64,000 nucleotides of DNA from an uncultured Verrucomicrobiae bacterium. GTDB taxonomy: Bacteria; Chlamydiota; Chlamydiia; Chlamydiales; Rhabdochlamydiaceae. The translations under genes were made by a program, and so were the position numbers. The notes beneath the pieces were generated by a model, which did not search any database, was not told the DNA's origin, and worked only from the letters and a program-made list of their open reading frames with translations. This document shows, in pieces, positions 27,883-55,330 of this stretch (the stretch's first letter is position 1; each line of letters starts with the position of its first letter). The DNA lies in the NCBI GenBank assembly GCA_963758735.1, contig CAVWWT010000004.1, positions 166,579 through 230,578 of the forward strand, given 5' to 3'.

Positions 27883-28051
27883 TAGTACTCAGTCAATAAA
27901 TTTTTTGGCATTTGGGCTAACGTGAAGGCTCCCGCGGCTGAGATTCCCGCAAGTGGGCCCTATGTTCTCAAATATGGACCCACTTGCGGGAACTCAACCC
28001 CGGGGCTTGTGTTGTAGCCCAAATGCCAAAAACTTTATCAACTAGGTACTA
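27883..28051. mobile_element. Modular palindromic MITE-like element, copy 1 (arm type A)
   Basis: 36-nt arms 27883-27918 and 28016-28051 around a 97-nt core, TA at both ends. Confidence 0.85.
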
Positions 28052-28196: not shown

Positions 28197-29120
28197 ATGT
28201 CAATAAATTTTAATATATCAAATGGTATTACAAAAGAAGCCAATCAAGGAATTGCGGTCCTTCCCAAGGATGTAATAACGAATATCATTTCTTTCTGCGA
28301 TCCTCAAACTGAAATGGTTGCCGCATCTCTAGTCTGTCATAAGTGGAATGCAATCAGCATTCCTGAGGCCTGTATCTATCAGTTGCAACGCAAAGAATAT
28401 CTTCATGTGGAAGAAGTTTTCCTATATCAGAATAGGCTCGGGGACAAATTTGATGATTGGGATTGTGTTTTTAAGCATTGCAGGGGCTTGAAGGAATTAG
28501 AATGTTCTTCTGTTTTTCGTTACCGAGTTTCTGGTGCCGAACAAGTAGAAATTATATCTATCATTCAATCTGTCAGTAAACATTGTCTCGATCTCACAAG
28601 GATCAACTTCGCCCATTGTTTTGCGGTTGGAGATGAAACACTGGCTGCTCTAGCACAATATCTTCCAACTCTAACTCATGTCAACTTAGGAGCCTGTAGG
28701 TATTCGGAAGATGGAATCGAAATGTTAGTAAAAGGGTGTCCGAATCTGATTTCAATCAATATGTTCGAAAATGGCATCGGTGATGAGGCAATTATGCACA
28801 TCGCGAACCATTGCCCCATGCTTGAGAAATTAAATCTTTTTAGTACTCATGGATATGCAGATGGGAAACCTATTACCGATGCATCTATCCTATTGTTGTC
28901 GAGTAAGTGCACAGCGCTTGCTCAATTAATCCTATCGGATGCTCAAATCACGAATAACAGTTTGCAATCCCTGGCAAAGCATTGCAAAAACTTGAGCTAC
29001 TTCTTCTATTTTAATTGCCCTTTACTTAAAAAAAGGGGACTCAATGCTCTTAAGTGGCAACTGTCTAAATTGACGATTTCAAATAATATAACTGACTCTA
29101 AAATGATCAGGTTTGTCTAA
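28197..29120 (+). CDS. F-box plus leucine-rich repeat (FBXL/AMN1-like) effector
   Basis: LPKDVITNIISF..SLVCHKW. Cys-containing LRRs such as CPNLISINM..IGDEAIMHIANHCPMLEKLNL. Confidence 0.9.
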   Translation: MSINFNISNGITKEANQGIAVLPKDVITNIISFCDPQTEMVAASLVCHKWNAISIPEACIYQLQRKEYLHVEEVFLYQNRLGDKFDDWDCVFKHCRGLKELECSSVFRYRVSGAEQVEIISIIQSVSKHCLDLTRINFAHCFAVGDETLAALAQYLPTLTHVNLGACRYSEDGIEMLVKGCPNLISINMFENGIGDEAIMHIANHCPMLEKLNLFSTHGYADGKPITDASILLLSSKCTALAQLILSDAQITNNSLQSLAKHCKNLSYFFYFNCPLLKKRGLNALKWQLSKLTISNNITDSKMIRFV

Positions 29121-40476: not shown

Positions 40477-40502
40477 TATACCCAAGTTGTCTGAAAATTT
40501 GG
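40477..40502. repeat. Solo TATACCCAAGTTGTC arm
   Basis: Matches 1124-1149 at all but one position. Confidence 0.75.
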
Positions 40503-40523
40503 CCGCAATCGTGATCAGACTAT

Positions 40524-40565
40524 TAGTGGGTAAGGGATTGGGTTCCACCAATCCCTTACCCACTA
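40524..40565. repeat. 18-bp perfect TA-bounded hairpin
   Basis: TAGTGGGTAAGGGATTGG-GTTCCA-CCAATCCCTTACCCACTA. Shares its last TA with the next element. Confidence 0.85.
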
Positions 40566-40730
40566 TACCGAAATTGTTTCAAAAATTGGGTCCCAGGCTG
40601 CGTGAAAGCTCCCGCGGTTGAGTTCCCGCAAGTGGATCCATATTTGAGAACATAGGATCCACTTGCGGGAATCTCAACCCCGGGGCTTTGACGCAGCCTA
40701 GGACCCAATTTTTGAAACAATTTCGGTATA
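40564..40730. mobile_element. Modular palindromic MITE-like element, copy 2 (arm type B)
   Basis: 36-nt arms 40564-40599 and 40695-40730 around a 95-nt core. Confidence 0.88.
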
Positions 40731-46663: not shown

Positions 46664-46665
46664 TC

Positions 46666-46697
46666 TACTCAAGTTGTCTCAAAAGTTGGGCATACAG
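46666..46697. repeat. Degenerate copy of the 1124-1157 palindrome
   Basis: TACTCAAGTTGTCTCAAAAGTTGGGCATACAG versus TACCCAAGTTGTCTCAAAATTTGGGTATACAG. Confidence 0.75.
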
Positions 46698-51106: not shown

Positions 51107-52399
51107 ATGGCAGCGCGCAAGAAAAAGCAAACCCCCTGGAAAGTTTTCATCGCAATCCTTTTAGGGATGGTCATCGGTTCCATGACCCAGCAGGGGTCCA
51201 CCCTCTTTGGCATCGATCTGTTTGCCTTTGCTTTTCCCGTTTACAGCCTTCTCGGTAAAGTTTTTATTAACGCTCTGACCTTGGTCGTCGTTCCCCTCGT
51301 CTCTTCTTCGATTATTACGGGGATTGCCAGGATTGGCAACGATAGCTCTTTTGGCCGTCTTGGCGCTAAAATTTTTGCGTTTTATTTGGGCACCAGCTTG
51401 ATTGCAATTTTAGTCGGACTGTTCTGCGTGAACCTGTTAAACCCAGGTGCGATGATCAATCCCGATACGATTGCAGGATCTGTGAATGGCGCTGATGTTC
51501 AAAAATATCTTGCAACGGAAGAAACCGCCCGATTTAGCGATATCCTCCTACAAATTGTGCCTTCCAATATCGTCGATACCTTTGGCAGAGGCCAAATGCT
51601 TGGGCTGATCTTCTTCAGCTTGATCTTTGGATACTGCCTCTCAAAGATCGAATCGGAAAGCGGCTCTATACTGAAGGGGTTTTGGCAAGGGCTTTTTAAC
51701 GCCATGATCCAGTTCACTCAAGTCATTATGAAATGCCTTCCTGTCGGGGTGTTTTTTCTAGTGGCAAAGGTGTTTGCGGAGACCGGATTTAATTCACTTC
51801 AATCGCTCGGCATGTTCACGATAACCGTTCTTCTCGGTCTTGCCCTATTTATCTTCGTCGCTCTTCCTGTTCTGCTTAAAATCATTGGGAATGTCAGACC
51901 CGGCCGCCATTTCAAAGCGATGGGACCTGCACTCATCACCGCTTTTTCAACGAGTTCCTCCTCGGCAACGCTCCCCATCACAATTGAATGCGTTGAAAAA
52001 AGGGCAGGCGTTTCAAACAAGATCTGCAGCCTTGTGGTCCCCCTTGGAACATCGATCAACATGTCGGGGTCCGCTCTTTATGAATGTGTGGCTGCCATAT
52101 TTGTAGCTCAAGCTTACGGGATCGAACTTACTGTAAGTACCCAATGCATCATCGTCCTTCTCTCGCTGATCACATCGATCGGAGTTGCAGGAATCCCTTC
52201 AGCTTCGCTTGTAGCGATCATCGCTATTTTGAAAACCATCGGTCTTCCCATCGAGGGGATCGGGCTTTTTGTCGCTGTGGATAGAGTGCTCGATATGTGC
52301 CGCACCACTGTAAACGTTTTTAGCGATAGCTGCTGCGCTATCCTCGTCGCTAGATCAGAAGGAGAAAAAAATGTTCTTGCAAAAGATGTTATGGAGTAA
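51107..52399 (+). CDS. Dicarboxylate/amino acid:cation symporter (DAACS)
   Basis: AFSTSSSSATLP, VPLGTSINMSGSAL, VAGIPSA, DRVLDMCRTTVNV.SD. Confidence 0.95.
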   Translation: MAARKKKQTPWKVFIAILLGMVIGSMTQQGSTLFGIDLFAFAFPVYSLLGKVFINALTLVVVPLVSSSIITGIARIGNDSSFGRLGAKIFAFYLGTSLIAILVGLFCVNLLNPGAMINPDTIAGSVNGADVQKYLATEETARFSDILLQIVPSNIVDTFGRGQMLGLIFFSLIFGYCLSKIESESGSILKGFWQGLFNAMIQFTQVIMKCLPVGVFFLVAKVFAETGFNSLQSLGMFTITVLLGLALFIFVALPVLLKIIGNVRPGRHFKAMGPALITAFSTSSSSATLPITIECVEKRAGVSNKICSLVVPLGTSINMSGSALYECVAAIFVAQAYGIELTVSTQCIIVLLSLITSIGVAGIPSASLVAIIAILKTIGLPIEGIGLFVAVDRVLDMCRTTVNVFSDSCCAILVARSEGEKNVLAKDVME

Positions 52400-52679
52400 G
52401 CAAGCAGCGTTTTTATTGCTGTTTGGAAATATGGCGTTTGCTGCTTTGCCGCCGCTTGCGCAAAGTAACAGGGAGATTCAGGCTATTTTAGCAGCGCCGG
52501 AAACCTACTATCTGCTCGGCGGGGCCGAAAGGATCGATCAAATTATTCGCTGTGAAAAAGGGTATTTGCTCTTGACCAAGAGTAAAGAGCTTCTCGTCGA
52601 CATTTGTTATATACACACGGGAAAAATTGGGCCCGCTGAATTTGAACTAAAATTCCACGAGCCCGTTGAGGCTGATTAG
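52386..52679 (+). CDS. Small exported hypothetical protein
   Basis: Signal peptide ending AFA-A; its stop TAG is the first TA(G) of the palindromic element. Confidence 0.6.
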   Translation: MLWSKQAAFLLLFGNMAFAALPPLAQSNREIQAILAAPETYYLLGGAERIDQIIRCEKGYLLLTKSKELLVDICYIHTGKIGPAEFELKFHEPVEAD

Positions 52680-52844
52680 GGAGTGTACTCAAAAGCTTTC
52701 ACTGTTTGGGCTAGCGTGAAAGCTTCCGCGGTAGAGTCCCCGCAAGTGGGTCCTATGTTTCAAAATATGGACCCACTTGCGGGGATCTCAACCCCGGAAC
52801 TTTGACGCAGTCCAAATAGCGAAATCTTTTGAGTACGCTCCCTA
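52677..52844. mobile_element. Modular palindromic MITE-like element, copy 3 (arm type C)
   Basis: 36-nt arms 52677-52712 and 52809-52844 around a 96-nt core. Confidence 0.88.
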
Positions 52845-53645
52845 GTTCTCAAGTTTTAAGAGGTGGAGCGCTTGCTCATCGCTTAATATTTTATGGAAAT
52901 GATCGAGCTGAAGTTGTGCAATTTTCGGATTAAAGGATTTTACCTTTTCGTCGGCTCCACCATAACGAATCCCCACAAAGTCAATTCCGAGCTTCTCTAC
53001 TGCTGCTTCGATATTTTCAATATGGCTTAATTTGTCGTCGATGACGACGATACGGTTCGGCAGTTTTTTCAATTTTTTCAAATAAGCATTGAGGGCCGGG
53101 CCTTTATCAATTCCGTTGCCTGTGAAAATGATCCCATTTTTGAACAATGTCCCTTTCAGCTCTTTAAAGACCAAATCCCCTTCCACAAGGGATGTCTTGC
53201 TAAAATCGATATGCAAAGGAGCTATCTGCTCGAGAGTTCGCTCAGATAGGGCCGGCGAGCGTTTAGTAAGCCCAATCATGGGAACATTTTGCTTCTGCAT
53301 TTTTGCAAGTAGATCGGCAATAATAGGTTCGACAAGTTGCATTTCTGTTCGGTCTAAAATTTGGCTGTAAACGGGCACAAGCTTTGCGATTGCCTCGTCG
53401 ACACTCAAACCTTCCGTTTTTAAGCAGTGATCTAAATGGTGGGAAAACCATTGGTCTGATCCAAGATGTTGCGCAGTTTCAATAAGTGTATTATCAAGAT
53501 CGAAGACATAGAGAGTGTCTTTTTCGAGATAGGTAAATGCATGTGCAAAATCGTTAGTTTCTGTGATGAGCGCTTCGCCTTTTGAAAAGGGGCAAAGAGC
53601 GACAGTGCACAGAGTTAATAAATAAAATAGGGACTTTCCTTTCAT
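52842..53645 (-). CDS. DUF2608 (HAD-like) protein with signal peptide
   Basis: VFDLDNTL..LGSDQWF, GLTKR, VVIDDKLSHI. Start set at ATG 53645. Confidence 0.85.
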   Translation of the reverse strand: MKGKSLFYLLTLCTVALCPFSKGEALITETNDFAHAFTYLEKDTLYVFDLDNTLIETAQHLGSDQWFSHHLDHCLKTEGLSVDEAIAKLVPVYSQILDRTEMQLVEPIIADLLAKMQKQNVPMIGLTKRSPALSERTLEQIAPLHIDFSKTSLVEGDLVFKELKGTLFKNGIIFTGNGIDKGPALNAYLKKLKKLPNRIVVIDDKLSHIENIEAAVEKLGIDFVGIRYGGADEKVKSFNPKIAQLQLDHFHKILSDEQALHLLKLEN

Positions 53646-53680
53646 TAGATTCCTTAGGTGAGGGAGCTTGTAACTTGTTC

Positions 53681-53847
53681 TAGGGAGCGTACTCAAAAGA
53701 TTTCATTGTTTGGGGTGCGTCAAAGCCCCGGGGTTGAGATCCCCGCAAGTGGGTCCTATGTCTCAAAATATGGACCCACTTGCGGGAACCGGGCCGCGGG
53801 AGCTTTCACGCAGCCCAAACTGCGAAATCTTTTGAGTACGCTCCCAA
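53681..53847. mobile_element. Modular palindromic MITE-like element, copy 4 (arm type C, core reversed)
   Basis: 36-nt arms 53681-53716 and 53812-53847 around a 95-nt core; overlaps the 3' end of aroDE. Confidence 0.88.
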
Positions 53848-55291
53848 GTATAATTTCAAAGACTTTATCTGCATTAATTGTTTCAGGAAACCAAATGCGC
53901 TGCTGCTCTAAAGCCTGGTAGACGAACATTTCGTATCCGTAAACAATCTGGCAATTTTTTTTCAAAGCTTTTACCAAAAAAGGGGTATTTTTAGGAATGT
54001 AAACGATATCCATGACTATCTTGCCAGGAAGGATCCACTGTTCTTCAATGAGGTCGCTCTCGGGTGTGCAATTAACAAGGATATCGTACCCTTTTTCAGA
54101 AACCTCTTTAATCAGTTCGAGACCTCCGCCCTGACAATCTAGGGTATCTGCAATCTCAAGCGCTTTTTCGGGAGTGCGATTGATAAGGGTCACAAATGCT
54201 CCCCTCTGAGTCGCTTCAAAAGCAATCGATTTGGCAGATCCGCCAGCGCCGATGATCACAACATGTCTTCCAAAAACGAGGGCTTTCTTTTCGATCGCAT
54301 CCAGCGCCCCAGTGCCATCGGTGTTATATCCGGTCATTTGATGATTGCTCACTCGAATCGTGTTACATGCCCCGATGACTTTAGTTTGTATCGAAGTTTG
54401 GGAGAGCATGGGAAGAACGCTCTCTTTTAGCGGCATGGTGACGCTGAATCCTTTAAAGGGAAGTTCTACAACTTTTGTGATGAAAGTCTGGAGTTCTTCT
54501 TTTGTAACGCGCACCTTGACATAGACGGCATTGATGTCGGCATCTGTAAAAACAGCGTTGTGAATCACGGCTCCTAGGCTTTTAGTGACGGGATCACCAA
54601 TCAAGGCGTAAATTTCTGTTTCTCGGTTCAATTTGCCAAATCGGTAAAGCTCTTGCATTTCACGCGCTGTGATTTGCCCCGGAGCTGTAGAGTCCTCTGC
54701 AAATAGTGGTGCATAAGTCAAATAGGAACCTACAACGGGGGCTAAGATCCGCGTGATCTGTCCTTCTTCCCCCATGGCGATACCGATAAAATTCTTCTCT
54801 TGCGAGTGGTTCTTCATGAATGAGAGAACTTTAAGCGCGTCAATGCAAGAATTTGCAGTCACTGCAATTTTATAGAAATGAGCGTTGGGAGTTTTGACTT
54901 TTCTAAAAACCTCTTCCAAATCGTCCGGCGTGTTCGAGAAATCGTGATAAGAGCTTATAAAAGAAATGTTCGGATAGGTTTCAAAAAGCCTTTTTCTGTA
55001 CTCCACTGGGACGTCATATTCTAGATCTACATAGGCAGGCCCTAGCTTGCAAAGAGCTTCCAGGCGATCTAAGCGCTCCATTTCTGTCCCGGAAAAGCGC
55101 CCCCCCTGATCATTTCTCCTAACGGTGAGCATGACAGGTTTTTCATACCCTTTGATAAAGGATTTGAGAGCTTCTTCATCGATATGCTCAAAATAATCAA
55201 GGCGGACCTCGACCCCATCGATATAGGGCTTTTGCGATGTGATCGTTTCGGAATTAGGGCTTGTAATCACCCCGAAAAGAAGTGTACTCAT
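53756..55291 (-). CDS. aroDE: Bifunctional type I 3-dehydroquinate dehydratase/shikimate dehydrogenase
   Basis: DGVEVRLD, SSYHDF, APGQ; then SLGAVIHN, FSVTMPLKE, ACNT, NTDG, IGAGGSA, GYEMFVYQA. Confidence 0.93.
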   Translation of the reverse strand: MSTLLFGVITSPNSETITSQKPYIDGVEVRLDYFEHIDEEALKSFIKGYEKPVMLTVRRNDQGGRFSGTEMERLDRLEALCKLGPAYVDLEYDVPVEYRKRLFETYPNISFISSYHDFSNTPDDLEEVFRKVKTPNAHFYKIAVTANSCIDALKVLSFMKNHSQEKNFIGIAMGEEGQITRILAPVVGSYLTYAPLFAEDSTAPGQITAREMQELYRFGKLNRETEIYALIGDPVTKSLGAVIHNAVFTDADINAVYVKVRVTKEELQTFITKVVELPFKGFSVTMPLKESVLPMLSQTSIQTKVIGACNTIRVSNHQMTGYNTDGTGALDAIEKKALVFGRHVVIIGAGGSAKSIAFEATQRGAFVTLINRTPEKALEIADTLDCQGGGLELIKEVSEKGYDILVNCTPESDLIEEQWILPGKIVMDIVYIPKNTPFLVKALKKNCQIVYGYEMFVYQALEQQRIWFPETINADKVFEIILGSVLKRFRSLGCVKAPAARFPQVGPYFET

Positions 55292-55330
55292 AGATTTAAC
55301 CCACAAAGAATCAATATTTTAAGTTAATAT

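Follow-up and report, generated by a model that had tools for sequence, protein, structure and literature searches.

MITE families are normally defined by conserved ends around interiors that are free to vary, and the reason why many MITEs are long palindromes is still unsettled. The RUP elements of pneumococcus, which are mobilized in trans by IS630-Spn1, are short and non-coding, have IS630-like ends, duplicate TA and carry an interior unrelated to that of the IS. The chlamydial elements described here resemble RUP and other bacterial IS630-derived MITEs in these features, by description and not by sequence. Unlike RUP, which has one end type, they combine one body with at least 12 end types in one genome, and many more across the phylum, at a fixed geometry; the entire element is palindromic and contains an invariant, asymmetric collar. 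The Correia/NEMIS elements of Neisseria are ~100–155 bp long and TA-flanked, form a long hairpin, have end subtypes in all left/right combinations, occur as internal deletions and often lie at gene ends. The chlamydial elements are similar in size, TA flanks, hairpin, end combinations, deletion variants and gene-end placement. However, Correia end subtypes differ by a few bases, whereas chlamydial ends are less than 50% identical and map to different ISs; sequence similarity between the two was neither expected nor found.

More distant systems share individual features. Plant Stowaway MITEs and mariner-like transposases offer the same arrangement in which only terminal repeats and the TA target are common to MITE and autonomous element, again with strong secondary-structure potential, and a 2009 study in Science by Yang and colleagues is reported to have found that internal MITE sequence tunes transposition efficiency. 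Stowaway elements are eukaryotic, however, and their families are defined by ends with varied interiors, the reverse of the chlamydial pattern. BIMEs/REP and BOX are likewise repeats made of interchangeable modules, but they have neither a TA duplication nor IS630-type ends, and REPs are imperfect palindromes of 20–40 nt with a GTAG or CGTC head that depend on RAYT (Y1). Rickettsia palindromic elements (RPE) are 100–150-bp palindromes of an obligate intracellular host and are tolerated at or inside gene ends, as the chlamydial elements are, but they lack terminal repeats, target duplication, a known transposase partner and modular ends. In the literature searched we came across no account of chlamydial MITEs, and chlamydiae are absent from a 2024 review of prokaryotic MITEs, as are modular or chimeric elements. 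The kind of element is well known (an IS630-type MITE); what is new is one chassis with many end types at fixed geometry, together with a conserved asymmetric collar. The usual pattern is reversed, with the interior as the conserved, exchangeable unit and the ends as the variable part, in an invariant geometry and with a collar asymmetry kept over several chlamydial families.

The window, the 64,000-nt stretch of DNA that was analysed, belongs to a 2.23-Mb genome of 45% G+C in four contigs (G000). It contains four near-palindromes of 167–169 nt, and we could verify the first-pass annotation of a shared ~95-nt hairpin core carrying three arm sequence types among them. From the outside inwards, each copy consists of TA, a 36-nt arm, the collar, an inner stem of 22–23 nt and a 15-nt AT-rich apex. 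The features are as follows.

40564–40730, no strand assigned: full-length copy of arm type B (putative MITE), 167 nt counted from TA to TA
40564–40599, + strand: left arm of the 40564 copy, 36 nt, starting with the TA target duplication; the TIR proper is the outer ~26 nt
40600–40617, + strand: x-side collar GCGTGAAAGCTCCCGCGG of the 40564 copy, with the extra T and the CGCGG variant
40618–40677, + strand: inner stem–loop module of the 40564 copy, allele 1, comprising a 22-nt stem, the 15-nt AT-rich apex ATATTTGAGAACATA and a 23-nt stem
40678–40694, + strand: y-side collar CCCCGGGGCTTTGACGC of the 40564 copy
40695–40730, + strand: right arm of the 40564 copy, 36 nt, reverse complement of the left arm, with TA at its end
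27883–28051, no strand assigned: full-length copy, 169 nt, with a left arm of subtype A and a right arm of subtype A2; the left collar is x-type and the right collar of the GCAACACAAGC type
52677–52845, no strand assigned: full-length copy of arm type C, 169 nt, whose terminal TAG and CTA are the stop codons of two convergent flanking ORFs
53681–53849, no strand assigned: full-length copy of arm type C, 169 nt, with its collar pair inverted relative to the 52677 copy and overlapping the 3′ end of ORF 53756–55306 (−)
1124–1154, no strand assigned: 31-nt mini-palindrome from a B3-type element, left TIR plus the last 9 nt of the right TIR
40477–40506, + strand: solitary, unpartnered arm of B3 type, located 58 nt upstream of the 40564 copy
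46664–46694, no strand assigned: degenerate B3-type mini-palindrome, 31 nt

The 40564 copy folds into one long hairpin (DNA fold −82.8 kcal/mol, z = −19 against shuffled controls), and its opposite strand, folded as RNA, is also far more stable than shuffled controls. It is identical at 165 of 167 nt to a copy at C4:431085 of G000 that lies in unrelated flanks. The arm length of 36 nt, measured from the terminal TA to the collar, holds for all eight window arms. The annotation that each arm pairs with its own partner is generally correct, except that the 27883 copy joins unlike subtypes (TAGTACTCAGTCAAT.. on the left and TAGTACCTAGTTGAT.. on the right) that are 87% complementary. The collar sequence given for the core likewise needs amending in two copies: the right collar of the 27883 copy is CTTGTGTTGT and not CTTTGACGC, and the collar pair of the 53681 copy runs the opposite way. 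The right end of the 53681 copy has no TA (it reads ..CCCAAG). The solitary arms in the window had been taken for type B; all three (1124–1154, 40477–40506 and 46664–46694) are instead of subtype B3 (TATACCCAAGTTGTCTC..), which is not the arm type of the 40564 copy, and they are 70–86% alike. Just downstream of the 27883 copy, gene 28197–29120 has weak F-box-like and LRR Pfam matches, typical of eukaryote-directed proteins in amoeba symbionts.

Searches of G000 returned 46 loci with the core (BLAST), 76 arm pairs with the arm sequences and 105 loci with a profile (nhmmer). The profile loci include 58 full-length copies and 24 shorter palindromic derivatives, on three contigs, and together make up ~0.6% of the genome. 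Full-length copies measure 162–169 nt regardless of sequence type, and the presence of stops in all frames and of covarying stems rules out a conserved ORF. We distinguish at least ten inner-stem alleles, two collar-flank variants (GCGT[G/C]A and GCAA[G/C]AC) and at least 12 arm types, among them, beyond the three already annotated, TATACCCAAGTTGTCTC.., TATACCGAAAATGATTC.., TATACCAATCACAGG.., TATACTGCGGTGCG.., TAGTGCTCCGTC.., TATAGTCGATTAA.. and TATACCAAATATC... When half-elements are aligned on the invariant collar anchor AAGC, the terminal TA lies 41–44 nt outside the anchor in every arm type of G000. At both ends, TA lies 40–45 nt outside the anchor in 49 of 54 full-length copies, an arrangement with a chance expectation of ~6%; the fixed arm length seen in the window therefore extends genome-wide, with no wide variation found.

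All arm types are equal in length, start with TA, pass from an A-rich to a T-rich centre at nucleotides ~15–25 and have a GGCT-like inner end. This bipartite, A/T-centred layout is what an IS630-type binding site would be expected to look like. Only in a loose sense are the arms one diverged TIR family: all look IS630-type, yet they form at least 12 sequence types in G000, and single-linkage clustering at 70% identity divides the outer 26 nt, among the listed matches of a wider collar-pair search, into ~40 groups, a few of the divisions reflecting alignment register alone. Left and right arms of full-length copies are 78–100% complementary (median 94%).

Shorter forms of the elements measure 80, 95–101 and 114 nt. 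In those that can be read, the junction still contains several bases of the lost inner module (GCGT-CGAACC, GGGG-TTTA-GCAT), and these forms look like deletions between short repeats rather than empty precursors. In addition, 31-nt mini-palindromes TATACCCAAGTTGTCTCAAAATTTGGGTATA occur in the window at 1124–1154 and 46664–46694 and ~25 more times on the + strand of G000. In each of them a left B3 end passes, through a TTGG microhomology, into the final 9 nt of the right end; either hairpin-stimulated deletion has occurred repeatedly, or a mini-element has spread. Two inverted copies of the TATACCAAATATC.. arm type, ~5.5 kb apart (C4:474-677 and C4:6199-6401), each occupy the centre of an additional inverted repeat of 18 nt, AATTTTGCTTGCTTGGAG, which represents a target that was itself palindromic or else part of a composite structure. 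Two identical B3 copies 7.9 kb apart (C2:873940-874106 and C2:881843-882009) share at least ten identical flank bases on each side, which looks like a segmental duplication rather than two insertions.

Arms and core are almost freely reassorted and are inherited nearly independently. In comparisons among the 54 full-length copies, core identity reaches at least 90% in 35 pairs whose arms are less than 55% identical, and arm identity reaches at least 80% in 61 pairs whose cores are only 55–80% identical. The elements are thus conserved inside and variable at the ends, the reverse of ordinary MITEs, as the first-pass annotation had described them. Across 222 half-elements from seven genomes, the pairwise identities of the arm block and the inner-stem block are hardly correlated (r = 0.05–0.14), whereas the correlation is 0.37–0.59 within arms and 0.56 within the stem; linkage decays across positions ~31–42, the arm/collar junction. 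Left/right chimeras are also found: A/B2 (C4:627358), B3/A (C4:765091), A2/C, C/B2 and several 80-nt forms. Sequences of the arm's innermost ~10 nt, such as CATTTGGGCT, recur in otherwise unrelated arm types, so what really varies is the outer ~26 nt, roughly the stretch that IS ends match.

These data bear on pure vertical divergence, whereby the ends of one ancient MITE would have drifted along with their transposases around a constrained body, with no exchange at all. A shared arm length, TA start, A-rich/T-rich centre and GGCT-like inner end are what such a history would leave, as is an architecture constant over several chlamydial families. We nevertheless strongly disfavour it: the body is not universally constrained, given its ten or more inner-stem alleles; the same allele is found in four unrelated arm types, and one arm type carries different alleles; and neither the uncorrelated arm and stem identities nor the chimeras fit descent without exchange.

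The collar is the sole long invariant stretch of the element and has the highest information content in the alignment. One half reads AAGC-T-CCCGCGG and the other AAGC-CCCGGGG, and 106 of 111 full-length copies from seven genomes keep AAGC-T-... in one half and AAGC-... in the other. In the main families, CGCGG also stands opposite CGGGG, with G opposite G two bases before the anchor, and both the extra T and the G/C difference are found again in the distant B3 family. The inner module with its apex occurs in both orientations relative to this asymmetric collar (29 versus 13); its orientation is mostly constant within an arm family, although one family of G011 has both.

Covariation of the core had been suggested as a test: 46 of 50 stem pairs covary between subfamilies, and 88% of cells are Watson–Crick compared with ~40% when the partner column is shifted. 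Private substitutions in seven young subfamilies behave differently, with 37 on one arm only and two mirrored (0.06 expected). Covariation between subfamilies combined with one-armed private changes suggests that pairing is enforced when a lineage propagates and not at each resident copy, which would give the hairpin a part in propagation rather than in host function locus by locus.

The same counts bear on how the arms became inverted. A half element comprising one end and half a core might be converted to a full palindrome by hairpin-primed or template-switch synthesis, which would make a new end type symmetric in one step and with equal lengths; the two mirrored substitutions, against 0.06 expected, are in its favour. 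With 37 of 39 private changes one-armed, arms within a copy only 94% identical at the median (minimum 78%), chimeras that stay uncorrected and an asymmetry of collar and apex that whole-element copying would erase but that survives in nearly all copies, we regard such fold-back synthesis as scarcely credible. The first-pass proposal of a mechanism that writes inverted arms of fixed length finds no support in these observations either.

A different function for the hairpin would be that of an RNA or DNA signal selected by the host (terminator, RNase III site, small RNA or nucleoid protein site), to which the ends would be incidental. The hairpin is very stable on either strand, about 12 of 54 copies genome-wide abut gene 3′ ends, and G–T mismatches slightly exceed A–C mismatches on the x-left strand (174 versus 132), although the copies are related and this excess is a hint only. 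However, the share of copies in divergent, tandem and convergent spacers roughly follows the length of these spacers, and the orientation of the copies shows no bias with respect to transcription (12 versus 11) and a weak one with respect to replication direction (31 versus 19). Promoter and terminator scans of the elements gave no signal above shuffles. Rfam placed just two tRNAs of the window above threshold, and the element matched only generic microRNA-hairpin models, far below threshold. Private mutations, moreover, are not compensated locus by locus. A host-selected signal is very unlikely in our view; the absence of transcription bias and the spacer-proportional placement agree with a hairpin that acts at the level of propagation.

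We next considered the origin of the ends. The sole match to a DDE_3 (IS630-type) transposase in G000 is an 80-aa remnant (locus L007, C1:122113-122743), which adjoins two full-length MITEs of two further arm types. Intact IS630-type copies are present in related genomes, where comparison of copies delimited ISs of 1122 bp (G016), 1126 bp (G001) and 1233 bp (G002). The complete transposases of G016 and G001 have DDE_3 and HTH_33/HTH_23 domains, and the IS of G002 has a 243-residue ORF with DDE_3 alone. The ISs of G016 and G001 start and end with TATA and that of G002 with CTAG, both consistent with TA duplication. Counted by hand, the B3 arm matches the right end of the G016 IS at 23 of 26 nt and the left end at 19 of 26, and the A2 arm matches the G002 IS at 20 of 26 nt at both ends. 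A further IS, that of G036, resembles at its ends the TATACCGAACGTG.. arms found in G010 and G017. A matching IS can thus be named for two, perhaps three, of the 12 or more arm types, which do not include the window's types B and C. The proposal that one core is carried by several transposase specificities is essentially right, in that B3 and A2 match the ends of different IS630-family elements and arms and core are nearly unlinked.

The collar motif is absent from all IS loci examined, and nowhere in the DNA searched do a forward and a reverse collar stand at an IS-like distance (>130 nt). The body is therefore not an internal-deletion remnant of these ISs, and we rejected a type I MITE, whose interior would be that of its IS. 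Other transposon classes were also set aside. An origin as REP/BIME with RAYT does not suit elements of 167 nt that end in TA, and the sole PF01797 match in G000 is a frameshifted IS605-type tnpA that is not flanked by elements; an IS1595-derived MITE was rejected as G000 has no PF12762 (DDE_Tnp_IS1595) match. Of the transposon families suggested as sources of the arms, IS630 was thus recovered, for B3 and A2, while G000 has neither an IS1595 transposase nor an intact RAYT. The decayed IS605-type element itself (C2:670613-671210) consists of the frameshifted Y1 tnpA and a tnpB stub of ~80 residues and lies ~1.1 kb from a type-D MITE; we found no link between it and the MITEs.

Insertion is documented by comparison of orthologous sites. 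The type-B copy at C4:77706-77872 of G000 occupies a tiny intergenic spacer and is absent between the same two genes in four congeneric genomes (G015, G006, G017 and G009), in which the flanking genes are contiguous. The empty junction reads ..AATA in G015 and G017; the spacer itself is not conserved and gives no exact pre-insertion sequence for G000. This is the one clean empty site found, as seven other loci examined by joining their flanks gave rearranged or gene-bearing intervals. For the 40564 copy we found no empty site, synteny downstream of the LysR gene being lost in the two closest genomes. In G011 (L125, C71:19300-19700), the same spacer as that of the C4:77706-77872 copy holds a different small palindromic insert (TATACTGAGGTCGGCTTGAAACT...); this short spacer looks like an insertion hot spot. 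At two other elements of G000 (C2:672116-672279 and C4:358155-358321), five relatives (G015, G009, G017, G011 and G006) have 1.2–3.4 kb extra between the same genes, and G000 may have undergone a deletion ending at the element.

Because the elements are TA-flanked, have an orthologous empty site and have two arm types that match the ends of intact IS630-family ISs lacking the core, we interpret them, with a probability of about 0.7, as non-autonomous MITEs of the IS630/Tc1-mariner type whose interior is unrelated to their presumed helpers and whose ends and core are reshuffled among subfamilies at the conserved collar. Near-identical copies in unrelated flanks, together with the empty site, support mobility. 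G000 has no intact cognate transposase, and genomes rich in intact IS630 copies (G001, G002 and G016) have few such MITEs, and vice versa; current mobility in G000 is therefore unproven.

In the mechanism that we propose, IS630-family transposases would move the elements in trans by cut-and-paste into TA, and all subfamilies would derive from one ancestral architecture. Homologous recombination, gene conversion or template switching would allow subfamilies resident in the same genome to swap their ends, their collar flanks and their inner hairpins, and the conserved collar, together with the semi-conserved GGGCT at the inner end of the arm, would anchor the exchange. Recombination within the invariant collar appears the likeliest route of arm/core reassortment, a mechanism that we read from the pattern of alleles rather than from exchange events caught in progress. 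If exchange always takes place at homologous positions, the constant geometry (36-nt arm, ~167 nt in total) follows without a writing mechanism, and near-palindromic collars would let a donor core be copied either way round, which would account for flipped cores. The hairpin body would be kept by selection on propagation, since amplification would need a pairing-competent body and two matching ends, and not by repair or by selection at each locus. Against exchange stands the collar homology of 14–18 nt, which is shorter than RecA-dependent recombination normally needs. Nor does this model predict the collar asymmetry; selection for pairing alone would not keep it.

Nested insertion instead of recombination could also have brought the shared core into each arm family, and flipped cores would agree with this, if the inner hairpin, and perhaps each layer, were itself a small mobile palindrome that inserts into the centres of other palindromic MITEs. 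Self-complementary motifs at the layer boundaries (CCGCGG/CCCCGGGG, and AATCGATT in the B3 family) could then be duplicated targets, and shorter elements without inner layers do exist. Yet the readable short forms keep bases of the inner module, which marks them as products of deletion rather than empty targets; at each of the 46 core loci the inner hairpin is accompanied by a collar on one side at least; and the inner module has neither TA ends nor a partner transposase. We consider this nested origin improbable.

The elements extend well beyond G000. Of 18 congeneric genomes searched, 13 have matches to the type-B element, as do four further families of the order, and exact matching of the correctly spaced collar pair picked out at least 114 DNA stretches. 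Among the listed collar-pair matches, record titles name Parachlamydiaceae, Protochlamydia, Parachlamydia, Rhabdochlamydiaceae, Waddliaceae and unclassified Chlamydiae. Some element-carrying records are titled Verrucomicrobiae, Acidobacteriota and, in one case, an archaeon; these look like mislabelled chlamydial MAGs. Arms in this phylum-wide sample were measured by gapped alignment, since the collar junction can have a 1-nt indel. Among the listed matches, the arms end 40–45 nt from the anchor in 73 elements, and the TA offset is 42–43 in 70 of 102; the geometry of G000 is thus found again in Parachlamydiaceae, Rhabdochlamydiaceae and Waddliaceae.

Bodies are 90–98% identical, with identities of up to 0.96–0.98, between genomes whose flanking genes are 69–78% identical, and, of 70 between-genome pairs with ends at least 90% identical, 58 have bodies less than 80% identical. 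Such sharing across species would reflect either movement of elements between species or strong constraint on both modules. Cross-species conservation of the body is not predicted by a model of MITEs plus exchange. It would be expected if the hairpin body were an active propagation module, a universal MITE chassis onto which pairs of IS630-type ends are grafted and so become highly mobile; the body should then be better conserved than the ends, reassorted among the 12 or more end types and shared at 90–98% across species. The AT-rich apex and long pairing would allow a cruciform or single-strand hairpin to form, by which the two ends of so short a transposon would be synapsed in advance, and the asymmetric collar (G·G mismatch, 5 bp, T bulge and C·C mismatch) would be read by a host or transposase factor. 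We offer this extension tentatively and think it rather unlikely. If the body does promote transposition, the elements would provide a compact, testable system for the role of the non-terminal part of a MITE and for switching between transposases.

Two further resemblances were considered and dismissed. A tRNA-like origin had been considered for alleles containing GGTTCGA, which on inspection by eye have no T-arm pairing, and collar and apex carry none of the defining motifs of parS, dif or attC (GTTRRRY/RYYYAAC, adjacent half-sites).

The elements also affect assembly and annotation. When flanking genes were followed by exact protein, Logan short-read contigs of the same species stopped ~27–28 nt inside elements; these repeats break short-read assemblies of environmental chlamydiae. 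They also give neighbouring genes stop codons and C-terminal tails, which is relevant to annotators. In the window, the TAG at 52677–52679, at the start of the 52677 copy, stops ORF 52371–52679 (+), and the CTA at 52842–52844, at the end of that copy, is the stop of ORF 52842–53696 (−). ORF 53756–55306 (−) extends ~31 codons into the 53681 copy (53756–53849). Elsewhere in G000, a type-C copy (C4:532196-532362) lies inside a 6.7-kb open frame (C4:526554-533300, −). Since the modal net insertion, 165 nt, is divisible by three, such copies may be tolerated in frame as Rickettsia palindromic elements are.
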